DNA of 25,225 nucleotides, taken from the IMG/VR virus record IMGVR_UViG_3300017914_001323, positions 1 to 25,225 of that record; one strand, given 5' to 3'. The notes under the pieces are model-generated. The model was not told the origin of the DNA and did no database searches. It saw only the letters and a program-made list of their open reading frames with translations. A program made the position numbers and the translations under genes. Positions 7,027-17,220 of this stretch are shown in pieces. Origin of the DNA: a virus (lineage: Duplodnaviria > Caudoviricetes). How positions within the stretch are numbered: the stretch's first letter is position 1; each line of letters begins with the position of its first letter.

Positions 7027-7704
7027 TTATACTCCAAATGTTGATGATTTTTCAAGTGCGATCCAATAACGAACATTCATTTCAGTATGCTTAAACTGAG
7101 AGATCAACTTAGATGAAACACTCACCTCGTAATCTCCTGGTAGCACCTTCAGGTTAGGAATGCTCATAATAAAGTTGAACACCGCACCCTCAGGATAGTT
7201 ACCGTCAAGGTCAATAGAATAAACATTTGAAGTTGAGTTCGTACTGTCAACGACTGACAGTTTTAACACGCCATCATTCGCACTAATAGACAACTCGCTA
7301 TGACCCAACGTCGCTGCAGCACGTTTGACCTTGTTCATAGTTTCGTTATCCAATACAAACGAAACGTCTGCATCAGGCATGTTAATATCTTTTGTTGGCG
7401 AGGTCAAAGTTTCTTCAGGTGAGAAGAAGTATTTAATACTTGAGCGACCAGACTCATCGCTGACGGTCACTGATTCTTCACCGAACTTCAGGTTTGGTTT
7501 ATCTACGAGTCCAAGCACACCAATAAACTCATTCAAGTCATAGATGCCGAACCGCTGTGGAAACTCTTCGCCTACAACCGCAGTGGCGACAACGTTCCTC
7601 GCTTCCGAAATAGTTTTAATTGTATTACCTTCGTTGATCAATAGATTTTGATTGATCCCCGCAAAGTTTTTTAACACCGACATGGTGGTTTCATTCAATT
7701 CCAT
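7027..7704 (-). CDS. gp45: Sliding clamp
   Basis: LKNFAGINQNL, FGIYDLNEFIGVL, YWIALE C-terminus; synteny. Confidence 0.96.
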   Translation of the reverse strand: MELNETTMSVLKNFAGINQNLLINEGNTIKTISEARNVVATAVVGEEFPQRFGIYDLNEFIGVLGLVDKPNLKFGEESVTVSDESGRSSIKYFFSPEETLTSPTKDINMPDADVSFVLDNETMNKVKRAAATLGHSELSISANDGVLKLSVVDSTNSTSNVYSIDLDGNYPEGAVFNFIMSIPNLKVLPGDYEVSVSSKLISQFKHTEMNVRYWIALEKSSTFGV

Positions 7705-7765: not shown

Positions 7766-9478
7766 CTAAGCAACCATTTTGCTAAAGTTTTTTTCTTTCT
7801 TGAATTCTATCTTTGATTTAAACTTACCGTCAAGGATCTCACCTTTATGAGAGATGACAAATACATTCGTATCATCGTCGAGTGTATATAATATCTTCAA
7901 TAGATTATCTACACCCTCATGATCCAAAGAAGAATCAAAAGTTTCGTCAAGGATAAGAAGATTAGTAGCAACACTATTTTTCATCTTAGCAATTTGACGC
8001 CATGTGAAAAGCAAGGCAAGATCAATACGTTGCTTTTCACCTTCACTAAACGAGTCATAGGTAAACTCATCACGATGACGTGACCGTATAGTTTCCTGAA
8101 ATGACTCGTCTAGATTAAAGTGTACAAAGAAGTCAAGAACTTGCAAATATTGGTTTACAAGTTTATTGATCGCTGGCATATACTGTTTAATAATTTTTGT
8201 TTTAATTCCAGTATCTTTGAGCATTTCAGCGATAACCGTGTTGTAGTTAAACTGCTCAGACATAGTAATTTTATCTTCGAGCATTTTATCTTTATCACGT
8301 TTCATCTTATCGCGATCATTCTTTGCTTCAGTTAAGTCAGCACCAACCTGATTATTTAAGGCAGACTGGTACTCTTGGATTTGGTTCTGGAGCGCAGAGA
8401 TCTCCCTGTTGTTCTCACCGAGTTGAGATACTTTAGATCGTAGCGTTCGAAGTAACTCGCTGGTCTCGCTAATCGCTTCCTCCACCTTGCTCCCGTCCTC
8501 ACTGATCTTACTGCGTTGGGATTGAAGCGACTTTGCTTCTGACTTCGCTGACTCGAGAATCTCATGTTTATGAGAGTCTGAGATGGTTTGGTCGCATACG
8601 GAACATACCTCATTCTTCTCAAAAAACATGGCACGTTTGGCGACTTCCTTCGACTGCGTTTGAAGATCTTGACCTCTGAGCATAAGGGTCTGGCGTTGAT
8701 CAGATAAAGTCGACATCCTTTCCTCGGTGCTTCGTAGATTTTCTTCGAGACCATCGCTAATGAGAGTATTCTCATTTTGTAAGTCATCGATGTTATTCTT
8801 CGATGCTGATATCCTAGATTCATAGTCCCTCCTTGATTCCTCAGTAACTGCTGCTACATCTTTGATATACTTGTCTTGCGCAGCAATTTTATTATTCTGA
8901 ATATCAATATTGTAATTGAGGTCTTTTAATGAATCTTTAAGTGCATTCGTTTTCTCTTTAAGTAGAACGTTCATTTTACTGAACACATTAATATCAAGCA
9001 GATCTTCAATCACCTCACGTCTATGACTTGATTGTAACTGCATAAAAGGAATAAAAGAAGATGAACCGAGTACAACTACCTGATGAAACGTTTTATGGTT
9101 AAGTTTCAAAATATTTGTTTCGAGTATCTTTTGATATTCTTTAGCATGAGACGACTGATTAATCATAGTACCGTTTTTCCAGATCTCAAAGAGTCCTGGT
9201 TTAATACCACGAATAATTTTAAACTGTGCTTTACCGATTACAAACTCAACTTCTACAACACACCCTTTGTTGTTGATTGAGTTAATAAGTTGATTTTTGT
9301 TTATGCTTCTATGTGCCTTACCGAACAAACCGAACGATATAGCATCAAGCATAGTAGATTTACCTGCCCCATTTTGACCAACGACAAGAGTAGACTTATC
9401 TCTTGATAAATCTATCTCCGTGAAAGTATTACCTGTAGACAGGAAGTTTTTATATCTAACTTTTTTAAATAATATCAT
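7766..9478 (-). CDS. gp46: Recombination endonuclease ATPase subunit (Rad50/SbcC-like)
   Basis: Walker A GQNGAGKST, zinc hook CSVC, signature SFSEGEK, Walker B LILDE, H-loop ISH. Confidence 0.97.
   Translation of the reverse strand: MILFKKVRYKNFLSTGNTFTEIDLSRDKSTLVVGQNGAGKSTMLDAISFGLFGKAHRSINKNQLINSINNKGCVVEVEFVIGKAQFKIIRGIKPGLFEIWKNGTMINQSSHAKEYQKILETNILKLNHKTFHQVVVLGSSSFIPFMQLQSSHRREVIEDLLDINVFSKMNVLLKEKTNALKDSLKDLNYNIDIQNNKIAAQDKYIKDVAAVTEESRRDYESRISASKNNIDDLQNENTLISDGLEENLRSTEERMSTLSDQRQTLMLRGQDLQTQSKEVAKRAMFFEKNEVCSVCDQTISDSHKHEILESAKSEAKSLQSQRSKISEDGSKVEEAISETSELLRTLRSKVSQLGENNREISALQNQIQEYQSALNNQVGADLTEAKNDRDKMKRDKDKMLEDKITMSEQFNYNTVIAEMLKDTGIKTKIIKQYMPAINKLVNQYLQVLDFFVHFNLDESFQETIRSRHRDEFTYDSFSEGEKQRIDLALLFTWRQIAKMKNSVATNLLILDETFDSSLDHEGVDNLLKILYTLDDDTNVFVISHKGEILDGKFKSKIEFKKEKNFSKMVA
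8356..8823 (-). CDS. Candidate overprinted +1-frame gene within gp46 (155 aa, highly basic)
   Basis: AAGGAGG 4 nt before the ATG; ORF coincides with a local GC rise; 39 R+K versus 4 D+E. Confidence 0.4.
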   Translation of the reverse strand: MNLGYQHRRITSMTYKMRILSLAMVSKKIYEAPRKGCRLYLINARPLCSEVKIFKRSRRKSPNVPCFLRRMRYVPYATKPSQTLINMRFSSQRSQKQSRFNPNAVRSVRTGARWRKRLARPASYFERYDLKYLNSVRTTGRSLRSRTKSKSTSLP

Positions 9479-10536
9479 GCAACTTCTAGTGCCTGTGCTT
9501 CCGTCATAAGTTCACGCACCTGCCCTTTGATGCGTTTTTTATCTAAGTCAGTATCCACTGCGTCAATGTAGGTGTCTACAATCTCTGCTGTGTCATCAAA
9601 GTTGATCTCGTTATCATCAACATTTTCACCGATGAACTCACTAAAATTCTCAGCAATTTTCAGTTCATGAATATCACGGTTTTGAATACGATCAATAAAC
9701 CGATCAAATACGAACTGATCCTTTTTATTAATAACAACGACCTTAACAAACTTGTTGTCAAGATGTTCAACGTCCATACTATTATAATCCATTTTCTCAT
9801 CGTCGTAAAGGATTTTTTCAAATAAAGTATGAGGATTGCTAATTTTTTCTATCTCACGAGTTTCTGTATCTATTACATGAAACCCTTTCGGGTCATGAGC
9901 ATCAGACCAGAAAAACTCCATCTGAGTTCCTAGATAAAAAATGTTGTCTATTTTAGATGAGGCATGATAGTGACCGCTCAAGACCATTTCAAATTTATCA
10001 AAGAGTTTATGATCAAGACCGTGTGTACTTTTGACACCACGCATCATTTCAAAACCGTTTAGTTCTAGATGAGCACCCAACCAGTCTGCCTTACACTCTC
10101 GAATAAACTTCATAAAGGGATCAAAGTTTTCTTGATTGATCCATGGGAGCATAGCGATTTTTAAAGACCCATATTCCATCACCGTAGGTTCCATGATAAT
10201 ATGGACTTCGTTCATATAGTAACCGAGCAGTTCTTTCAAACTGTTCAGGTCATTTGTATTTTTGTAAAACGTATCGTGGTTCCCAGGAATAATATCCATA
10301 CGCATTCCAAGTTTGCGCATAGGGTCTAGGAAATTCTTACGATTATGATTCAGTGCTTTAAAGTTAACAAACTTGCGGTGATCATAGTAATCGCCAAGAT
10401 GTACGATCTGTTTAATGTTATGTTCTTCACAGTATGGAAAGAAAACCTTACTGTAAAAGTCTGCAGCATTCCTAAGAAATATTTCAGATGAGTTTCTAAT
10501 GCCGCAGTGAGTATCATTAAGAACTGCGATCTTCAT
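9475..10536 (-). CDS. gp47: Recombination endonuclease nuclease subunit (Mre11/SbcD-like)
   Basis: Phosphoesterase motifs DTH, GDYYD, GNHD, GHYH. Confidence 0.97.
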   Translation of the reverse strand: MKIAVLNDTHCGIRNSSEIFLRNAADFYSKVFFPYCEEHNIKQIVHLGDYYDHRKFVNFKALNHNRKNFLDPMRKLGMRMDIIPGNHDTFYKNTNDLNSLKELLGYYMNEVHIIMEPTVMEYGSLKIAMLPWINQENFDPFMKFIRECKADWLGAHLELNGFEMMRGVKSTHGLDHKLFDKFEMVLSGHYHASSKIDNIFYLGTQMEFFWSDAHDPKGFHVIDTETREIEKISNPHTLFEKILYDDEKMDYNSMDVEHLDNKFVKVVVINKKDQFVFDRFIDRIQNRDIHELKIAENFSEFIGENVDDNEINFDDTAEIVDTYIDAVDTDLDKKRIKGQVRELMTEAQALEVA

Positions 10537-11206
10537 GTTGTTTCAATCTCTCATAATAATTATTTTTTGCTAGAATTTTATTCAACTTTTCGATAGTATC
10601 TTCTTCCAAGTAGTCAACATAACCACCAATTTTACCTTTTCTGACCTTTTGTGCTTCTGGTCCGTTTTTTGAATAAAATTGATAATTTCTTTTAGAGTAT
10701 TGAGGATCTTTATGGAACTTTTTCATTTTATTAAATTCACATTCTTCGACGACTTTTTTAATTTCATCATGAGGAATTACTTTGTTGCAAAAATCTAATA
10801 GAGATTTCATTTCTTCTACGCAATTGCGTTTTAGATTTTCGTATGAAATAAGATGAAAGGATCCGAAAGAATCTTTACTTTCTAAAACTGCTAGATGATG
10901 ATCAATTACCTTTTGGATATTCAACTTACAAAATTGATTTATCTCATTTGGCATTTTATCATCTTTTTTCCTTACAACCATTTGGAAGTACCATGATACG
11001 ACTGTATCTATTGGACATCTAATCATGTATATACACTTCATTTTATGCATTTGCTTTGAATGTTTTTTCAACTTCTTTTCATAAAATGAAAATTTCATTT
11101 CCTTGTTGACTTTACCATGCTCATATTCATATTTGACATTCAACTTGTCTAGCATTACTCTTAACCAAGTCCTACCAGATTTAGGAAATGATACTAACAC
11201 TATCAC
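10517..11206 (-). CDS. PAPS-dependent sulfotransferase
   Basis: 5'-PSB loop SFPKSGRTW, 3'-PB motif IRCPIDTVVSWY, ISYENLK, C-terminal RKGKIGGY. Confidence 0.9.
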   Translation of the reverse strand: MIVLVSFPKSGRTWLRVMLDKLNVKYEYEHGKVNKEMKFSFYEKKLKKHSKQMHKMKCIYMIRCPIDTVVSWYFQMVVRKKDDKMPNEINQFCKLNIQKVIDHHLAVLESKDSFGSFHLISYENLKRNCVEEMKSLLDFCNKVIPHDEIKKVVEECEFNKMKKFHKDPQYSKRNYQFYSKNGPEAQKVRKGKIGGYVDYLEEDTIEKLNKILAKNNYYERLKQHEDRSS

Positions 11207-16032: not shown

Positions 16033-17220
16033 TTACGAATTATTCGGTGGGAACGGCATGTTATTGTTCCATGTCGCAACATTATCTTTATCCCATCTTG
16101 TACCGTTAATTCCTACAATCGCTGTTACAATGATCCTATTTTCTATGTTTGTTGACCAATCATTTGTTCCATCATATGTACCCCAAGTGATATCAGTGGG
16201 TGAATAGTCACCAGCAGGATCTGTTGTAAATGTAGCAGTGTTGTTATAGAAAGGTGTCTTAATCTTCTTATCACTTTGAACGCCAGCAACACTTCCGTTT
16301 GGAGATCCAACCGTTTGATCCCAAATCCATCCTGGGTTGTAACCTTGCGCAGTATATGTACGACCGTCATTAGCACTACCGCCAGCATTAGAATACATTC
16401 TAAATTTAAAGATGGTGCCGTCCTCAAACTCAAGTCTGTCAATAAAGTCACCTGGGAATGCTGCCAAGGTATTAAACATATTTGTAACACCTGTATTTGT
16501 AAGTTCACCAGATTGTGGATTGGATGCAACATATCTAAATCCGACTTTCGCCTCACTACCCTGATTAATAGGATAGTTTACGTTCATTAGATAAACGCCA
16601 AACTCAGCAGGATCAGGAGCGAGACCAGTGTAACTGATTGTCACTGCTTTATTTGCAAAACTAATTTGATCGGTCGCCTTGAATGTATAGGTAAAATCTC
16701 CACCGTCAGAATCAGTGAGGTTTCCTAGAGTAACATTATTATAAACACTATCTGCTGATAGAGGAGTGAATGTCCAAACGGATGAATCGTTTGTAATGTT
16801 CACGAGATACTGAGCGGAATCTGATGCAACTCCGCTGTAGGTGATAATAGCATCTGGGTTATCTGAATCTGATGCTGGGTTAGTAATGACTAGTGCGGTT
16901 GCAGAATCCGCAATACTGAAAGTAGAATTAAGATCACTATCAAATTGCGGACTCAAGTTTATAAGTGCGACGTTGTACCAACCATTTCCGTTGGATATGT
17001 ACATCCTATTATTGGATTCAACATATGCCTGATCACCAGAAGTTAAGTTGCTAATCGGTAAAGAGTCTAAACTCTGGTAAACCGTTATCGCAGCATCTTG
17101 AGCGATAAGTTCAACCTGAGCAGAATCCAAACCAGGATCTGCATTATCCAATACTTCGGTTCTTACCTCACCATCATCGTTGATGAGTTCCGCCATGAGG
17201 CGGTTGATACTTTTCGCCAT
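16033..17220 (-). CDS. Virion/tail-fibre-associated protein (395 aa)
   Basis: GDQAYV...RMYISNGNGWYNVALINLSP; C-terminal domain unrelated to that of the paralog. Confidence 0.8.
   Translation of the reverse strand: MAKSINRLMAELINDDGEVRTEVLDNADPGLDSAQVELIAQDAAITVYQSLDSLPISNLTSGDQAYVESNNRMYISNGNGWYNVALINLSPQFDSDLNSTFSIADSATALVITNPASDSDNPDAIITYSGVASDSAQYLVNITNDSSVWTFTPLSADSVYNNVTLGNLTDSDGGDFTYTFKATDQISFANKAVTISYTGLAPDPAEFGVYLMNVNYPINQGSEAKVGFRYVASNPQSGELTNTGVTNMFNTLAAFPGDFIDRLEFEDGTIFKFRMYSNAGGSANDGRTYTAQGYNPGWIWDQTVGSPNGSVAGVQSDKKIKTPFYNNTATFTTDPAGDYSPTDITWGTYDGTNDWSTNIENRIIVTAIVGINGTRWDKDNVATWNNNMPFPPNNS

Follow-up and report, generated by a model that had tools for sequence, protein, structure and literature searches.

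Gene 30.3' of bacteriophage T4 is an open reading frame (ORF) nested in the +1 frame of gene 30.3, and its product is basic. Ndd and MotB of T4 are basic accessory proteins of about 150 residues, which bind nucleic acids and take part in host takeover. In phage lambda, the Rz1 gene lies wholly within the +1 frame of Rz, a coiled-coil protein, and was missed by gene callers (PMC6139136). Proteins that arise by overprinting are typically lineage-restricted and disorder-prone (PMC8227390), and overlapping genes in general have been described as rich in Arg, Ser and Pro (PMC6195259). Here we describe a nested frame in the coiled-coil arm of the recombination protein gp46 of a marine T4-like phage, which very likely is a gene born de novo by overprinting, as judged from its sequence and that of its relatives.

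A reading frame nested in the gp46 gene

The window, which is the whole 25-kb stretch analysed (25,225 nucleotides of a linear virus record), carries a T4-like succession of genes, all on the minus strand: uvsY, uvsW, 55, 47, 46, 45, 44, 62 and regA, where T4 gene names stand for the PHROG functions. The gene for gp46, the SbcC/Rad50-like subunit of 570 residues (7766..9478, minus strand; PHROG 77, E 1.6e-159), is overlapped at its start by the upstream gene for the SbcD/Mre11-like gp47 (9475..10536, minus strand; PHROG 100, E 2.5e-96), and is followed by the gene for the sliding clamp gp45 (7027..7704, minus strand; PHROG 223, E 2.8e-71). The nearest named phage is Kyanoviridae phage C48C1, with 53% identity in gp46. 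A gene of 229 codons between those for gp55 and gp47 (10517-11206, minus strand) has no PHROG match; the start of its product (SFPKSGRTW) is reminiscent of a sulfotransferase motif. Two contigs with a T4-like gp46 were found in genome bins, one bearing the nested ORF (L160, 71%) in a Verrucomicrobiales bin and one (L162, 95% over the C-terminal part) in a Marinimicrobia bin. They could be hints to hosts or cases of misbinning, and were set aside as host evidence because of the latter possibility.

The +1 frame of gp46 codons 219-373 contains an ORF of 155 codons (8356-8823, minus strand), termed type A, the predicted product of which has a pI of 11.75, with 39 Arg and Lys residues against 4 Asp and Glu. 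The ORF is centred on the CSVC sequence of gp46 (codons 292-295; 8594..8605, minus strand), presumably the zinc hook by analogy with Rad50, and there the +1 frame reads a conserved RxVPYA block. Both Cys residues of CSVC are invariant in 38 sequences, and the gp46 frame is intact, without an internal stop. The ATG of type A (8821..8823, minus strand) begins at the second base of the TAT codon for Tyr219, and a Shine-Dalgarno (SD)-like AAGGAGG, formed by the codons AGG AGG, ends 4 nt before it (8828..8834, minus strand). The initial annotation had drawn attention to the GC content of single 60-nt lines (47, 57 and 50% inside, 22 and 27% outside), to gp46 remaining in frame with its hook intact, and to the length, charge and SD-like sequence of the +1 ORF, all of which we reproduced.

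Over the whole overlap the GC content is 45.4%, versus 33.7% in the remainder of the gp46 gene. The excess is located mostly at third positions of gp46 codons (GC3 0.50 versus 0.31; T3 0.24 versus 0.42). As an island it is modest: GC content over 200 nt peaks here at 0.49, but values of 0.45-0.465 are found elsewhere in the window. Synonymous recoding of gp46 codons 219-360 of the window sequence gives an expectation of 4.8 stops in the +1 frame, and a P value of 0.0024 for a frame without any. A further +1 ORF of 137 codons (16143-16556, minus strand), which had been put forward as an example of a long frame arising by chance, shows no GC3 rise and is interrupted by six stops in the sole relative that spans it (L533); it is likely a chance frame.

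Conservation and selection

We compared the best 80 of 515 relatives by gp46 similarity (65-100% identity), one of which (L007) starts within the overlap, where it is open, and lacks the ATG region, leaving 79 testable loci. Of these 79 loci, 66 share the ATG of the window and keep type A open; among them, 62 end at 141-159 residues, the last ~14 codons being variable, and four run off the contig; one locus (L002) is shifted by one codon. The frame contains 5-14 stops in 12 other loci, with a GC3 of 0.20-0.33 in the segment, and one stop only in the last (L067). The carriers examined have zero stops in codons 219-360, where about five are expected per sequence. Their GC3 inside the overlap is 0.40-0.56, with a background GC3 anywhere from 0.19 to 0.47, and the GC island therefore follows the ORF and not the GC content of a donor. 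Two patterns that would speak against overprinting, GC-rich relatives with stops in the +1 frame and a patch acquired from a phage of higher GC content, were looked for and not found: the stop-bearing relatives lack the GC rise, and the rise tracks the ORF at low and high background alike, although recombination of the segment does occur.

A wider set of sequences, from which two loci with stops in gp46 were excluded, places the frame on a scale of relatedness. Codons 219-360 are stop-free in the +1 frame in 10/10 sequences with at least 80% gp46 identity, in 63/76 at 70-80%, 22/30 at 65-70%, 4/30 at 60-65%, 4/37 at 55-60% and 0/32 below 55%; the upper bins are inflated by loci fetched using the ORF itself. 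The type A gene is widespread in marine T4-like phages and almost always unannotated; 162 IMG/VR stretches match it, and four ORF-length type A proteins are present among 5.8 billion predicted proteins.

Synonymous change in gp46 is suppressed where the frames overlap, which, together with the shared ATG and the open +1 frame of relatives, bears out the earlier suggestion of an overprinted gene. Among 39 non-redundant carriers, gp46-synonymous divergence is 0.21 over codons 219-360 and 0.51 in both flanks, whereas six non-carriers diverge by 0.53 over the same codons. Tyr219 is encoded by TAT in 39/39 carriers versus 4/6 ORF-less sequences, and Tyr204 is free in the carriers (TAT in 22, TAC in 17). 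The gp46 codons right after Tyr219 are fixed on rare choices in the 39 carriers (AGG, TCG/GCG and CAG). In the larger set of 61 carriers, changes that are silent in gp46 and alter the ORF occur at 0.132 inside the overlap, versus 0.264 in the flanks.

The residues of the ORF are retained selectively. At least 85% conservation is found at 53 of 142 ORF positions, and 39 of these 53 are positions where free recoding of gp46 gives less than 50%. Pro33, Pro75, Arg8, Arg70 and Arg127 are held while the gp46 residue changes; Pro75 is kept over Ser or Pro in gp46, and Arg127 over Thr, Ser or Ala. Type A is about as well conserved as gp46 over the same codons (identities of 0.58 and 0.60). Such a pattern of selection, as far as it can be read from substitutions, is what a second protein produces and is not expected from an RNA element. 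Judged in this way, selection at the level of the protein preserves the open +1 frame within the coiled coil of gp46, and the GC island results from the double coding of the arm.

A second nested frame on the same arm

A dissimilar +1 ORF, termed type B, covers gp46 codons 213-383 in a clade that is ~55-62% identical to the gp46 of the window. It encodes 171-172 residues (for example L199:3138-3650, plus strand, aligned with 33 other loci in alignment A2), and is open in 60 of 73 full-length loci and in 34 of 39 non-redundant ones. Changes that alter the type B ORF are lowered (0.177 versus 0.238), and doubly silent changes are not. In an AlphaFold2 model, residues 81-170 form four strands and two helices, with block pLDDTs of 65-91, preceded by a Lys-rich tail; a Foldseek search of the PDB and BFVD returned no match at E 0.001 or better.

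Types A and B have 16% identity in the +1 frame, versus 14-17% for ORF-less controls, and are not otherwise more alike than these, except for a few residues in common, including one Trp. Since the identity equals that of the controls, the 52% probability from hhalign can be put down to the gp46 register that both have, and homology between them was rejected. A quick tree also rejects a single clade of A, B and a B-related group, C (p-AU 3.6e-6). Two separate births are likely, and are the simplest reading; a single old birth, followed by many losses and full divergence of A and B, is possible.

Group C comprises 12 sequences (L248, L252, L273, L276, L380, L389, L390, L396, L400, L518, L524 and L527), in which a +1 frame similar to the type B core is open for 122-147 codons, over gp46 codons from about 227 to 381. 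The codon constraint is mild (0.59 versus 0.47), and there is no single common start codon; these could be shortened B forms or a case of frameshifting. In a third, more GC-rich clade, three sequences (L182, L184 and L186) have a +1 frame of 155 codons (gp46 codons 241-395, with an ATG at 242) that is absent from their neighbours and may be a chance frame or a very young ORF. In the L199 group, GC3 is elevated (0.46-0.63) and synonymous divergence reduced over codons 101-160, outside the nested ORF, among carriers and non-carriers alike, possibly from recent exchange.

Among 205 non-redundant gp46 genes, a sample that favoured carriers, each of the 112 +1 frames of at least 120 codons falls between codons 170 and 393, and +2 frames never attain this length. 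We hypothesize, with a modest leaning in its favour, that the gp46/Rad50 arm is a recurring nursery of genes, in which at least two lineages of marine T4-like phages independently overprinted unrelated functional proteins around the zinc hook, one of them (B) with a compact alpha/beta domain as predicted, and the segment is swapped as a module. If so, these phages would display in nature the successive stages at which a gene is born, becomes fixed and is lost again within a core gene.

Predicted product and possible role

The type A protein of the window has no usable match in Pfam, PHROGs or the ESM Atlas, and type A has none among 50,697 phage records. A profile search of 1.84 billion representatives returned two family members and one short chance match, to a repetitive protein of 1040 residues (P0007), which was discarded as a relative because the match covers 28 repeat residues. 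No longer form of type A was found among 8000 candidates scored. Type A has a narrower spread than gp46, being absent from the most distant identity bin, and no stand-alone relative of ORF length or longer in these searches, as an overprinted gene would. An AlphaFold2 model of the chain is poorly ordered and uninformative as to its fold (pLDDT 45, pTM 0.20).

The basic charge of the product had been taken as a possible sign of binding to nucleic acids, an argument that does not hold as such, because the +1 frame of a coil rich in Glu, Lys and Gln yields a basic protein anyway. The codons GAA, GAG, AAA and CAA of the arm would be read as Lys or Arg in the +1 frame, giving a basic product almost for free. 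Arg and Lys make up 23.6% of residues where 21.2% is expected, and 22.4% in the +1 read-through of ORF-less relatives; Asp and Glu account for 3.3%, versus 4.4% expected. Family members have pI values of 10.6-12.0. The composition departs from expectation in the kind of basic residue, with more Arg (14.7% versus 9.0%) and less Lys (8.9% versus 12.2%), and Gly, Ala, Pro and Tyr are above expectation, Leu and Val below. Glu, Lys and Gln codons of gp46 end in G more often only where the +1 frame then gives Arg (0.51 versus 0.38), and less often where it gives Ser (0.31 versus 0.38). The net charge is mostly a default of the frame, and the selected charge trait is the preference for Arg over Lys only. 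As the charge is near this default, and the enrichment in Arg, Ser and Pro is general in overlapping genes, composition is a weak guide to binding.

We nevertheless lean slightly towards an accessory role in nucleic-acid binding, in view of the composition, with 7 Arg and 7 aromatic residues (Tyr, Trp and Phe) among the 39 selected positions of a poorly ordered chain, and of the genomic setting. The product would be made together with gp47, gp46 and gp45, and its target would most plausibly be the DNA processed by gp46/47, or host nucleic acid. Some close relatives (L018/L019, and L067 with its one stop) do without an intact ORF, so that the protein is not essential; it would be a dispensable accessory factor of infection. 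The arm may have been used because substitutions are tolerated there.

The main rival to this role is that the nested gene is real but its product acts on another protein, which could be a host factor, a defence protein or one of the phage's replication proteins, its charge being incidental, which we consider possible but distinctly less probable. The default origin of most of the charge agrees with such a role, as do many of the selected residues, which are Ser, Tyr, Leu, Pro, Thr and Gly in short blocks, an arrangement like that of peptides folding upon contact with a partner. A host-specific factor would fit the patchy presence of the ORF and the swapping of the segment, and de novo proteins often counter host defence, as described for eukaryotic viruses (PMC8227390). 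It accounts less well for the choice of Arg over Lys and for the seven Arg positions held against recoding; furthermore, the 1.5-5 kb flanks of 260 loci, which are of unequal length, contain no partner or co-varying neighbour, and no clear case of a gene that replaces or accompanies the ORF.

Start signal and translation

Type A is in all probability translated as a protein of its own from the ATG at codon 219. The ATG is present in 61/61 carriers, a conservation that is partly forced by the Tyr-Glu of gp46, and also in 10 of 13 broken or ORF-less sequences. The AAGGAGG motif lost its value as a supporting argument, as the exact motif is present in only 3 of 80 sequences. The SD duplex energy is -11.9 kcal/mol in the window, at the short spacing noted above, with a median of -3.4 kcal/mol in type A and values of -5 or better in 25% of 61 sequences, compared to -2.0 kcal/mol for background ATGs and -1.7 kcal/mol for seven non-carriers. 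Ribosomes would initiate internally on the gp46 mRNA and make a separate Arg-rich protein of ~155 residues, guided by a strong SD in this phage and by a weaker, A-rich leader in most relatives.

There is no late promoter (TATAAATA) within the gp46 gene, and sigma-70-like promoter matches are no more frequent than in shuffled sequences. In RNA data from four runs of one study, available as contigs only and unable to show the frame, the summed depth over 8404-8723 is several-fold higher. A separate transcript was rejected as its explanation, because the excess is due to contigs from related strains that align only there; RNA pieces that match this phage almost perfectly have an even depth along the gp46 gene, of about 14-54.

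Ribosomal frameshifting near codons 212-219, which would fuse the N-terminal half of gp46 to a basic tail, is a highly improbable alternative to initiation at the ATG. The weak SD of most type A members would suit it, as would the A-rich leader, with a +1 frame open from codon 212, and the 12 group C sequences that are open from about codon 227-256 without one common start codon. For type A it is unlikely because codons 212-218, just ahead of the ATG, are free to vary and have no slippery word in common, and the constraint starts exactly at the ATG. For type B it is unlikely because a start codon, ATG in 25 and TTG in 9, occupies one position in 34/34 carriers and is accompanied by a conserved SD (-5 kcal/mol or better in 76% of 33 B-group sequences, versus 15% in the background); three type B non-carriers have ACG at this position.

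Origin, loss and exchange

In a FastTree tree of the overlap (132 sequences thinned from the 205), all 29 carriers fall in one clade of 32 with successive ORF-less sisters, a grouping into which shared ORF constraint could itself have drawn the carriers. A quick IQ-TREE tree of 36 sequences places three ORF-less ones (L050, L061 and L454) inside the carrier clade, and some of these may be losses. Agreement of the deeper ORF-less sisters with the 39 selected residues is no better than background, whereas L019 keeps 16 of them, where 8.5 +/- 2.2 are expected, which fits a loss of the ORF. L067, with its stop at ORF codon 24, is identical to the intact L069 in the gp46 flank protein; either the ORF was lost very recently or the assembly is at fault. 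Trees of the flanks and of the overlap disagree, and the ORF status switches at least five times on the flank tree; the overlap segment has therefore also been exchanged by recombination. The nesting of carriers among ORF-less lineages points to a gene that arose de novo, was subsequently lost in places and was passed between phages as the segment was exchanged.

A rival reading has no second protein, and ascribes the GC content and the open frame to chance, to a GC-rich patch acquired by recombination or to an element that acts as RNA or DNA. The recombination of the segment speaks for it, as do doubly silent sites, which are ~24% less variable inside the overlap: in the 61 carriers such changes occur at 0.347 (interval 0.269-0.421) inside and 0.454 (0.427-0.478) in the flanks, the intervals being just apart. 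Some nucleotide-level constraint or a younger age of the segment is possible, and in a smaller set doubly silent transitions do not fall inside the overlap. This drop is smaller than, and stands beside, the purifying selection on the amino acids of the second frame: the constraint bears mainly on changes that alter the +1 product, ORF residues hold while gp46 changes, carriers escape the expected stops, and GC3 rises in carriers only, whatever the background. With no Rfam match in the overlap and no comparably long +2 frame, the probability that no second protein exists is slighter still than that of frameshifting. That type A is an embedded lysis gene, either an o-spanin like Rz1 or one comparable to phiX174 E, is virtually negligible as an explanation. 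The architecture resembles that of Rz1 in the +1 frame of Rz (PMC6139136), but type A lacks a membrane segment (across 61 sequences, the best 19-residue Kyte-Doolittle means are -0.05 to 0.89), a conserved Cys and a hydrophobic N-terminus resembling a signal, and its host gene encodes an SbcC-like recombination ATPase in a replication cluster, not an i-spanin in a lysis cassette.

Comparison with known systems

If it is read correctly, type A shows with unusual clarity how a gene is born de novo in a large DNA phage, with sister lineages that lack the ORF, losses of recent date and probably an independent second birth at the same site. It would permit a test of which regions of host proteins allow overprinting, and of whether new folds arise in that way. 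Third positions of gp46 codons are not neutral in these phages, and the arms of other SMC/Rad50 proteins may merit the same scrutiny. Searches of the openly accessible literature listed no report of a gene nested in gp46.

The nested gene 30.3' of T4 is about half as long as type A and lies in a non-core host gene, and type A has no sequence match in PHROGs or the 50,697 phage records. With Ndd and MotB the analogy is functional only; these genes stand alone, and no similarity was detected. The lambda pair Rz/Rz1 is built alike, Rz1 being wholly embedded in the coiled-coil protein Rz, in +1, and having escaped gene callers (PMC6139136). Type A differs from Rz1 in having no lipobox or membrane segment and no lysis cassette. 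With overprinted viral genes at large, type A shares a lineage-restricted second frame, the lack of outside relatives and a poorly ordered prediction (PMC8227390, PMC6195259), as well as enrichment in Arg, Ser and Pro, in C and CG, and in CGA and TCG (PMC6195259). The curated sets of such genes come from small eukaryotic viruses, that of PMC6195259 excluding phages and genomes over 30 kb. Type A differs in being hosted by a Rad50-like gene that belongs to the core of a large phage; sisters lacking the ORF serve as controls, and a second birth at the same site is likely. Type A behaves as overprinted viral genes do elsewhere; it has the layout of Rz/Rz1 but is not a spanin.
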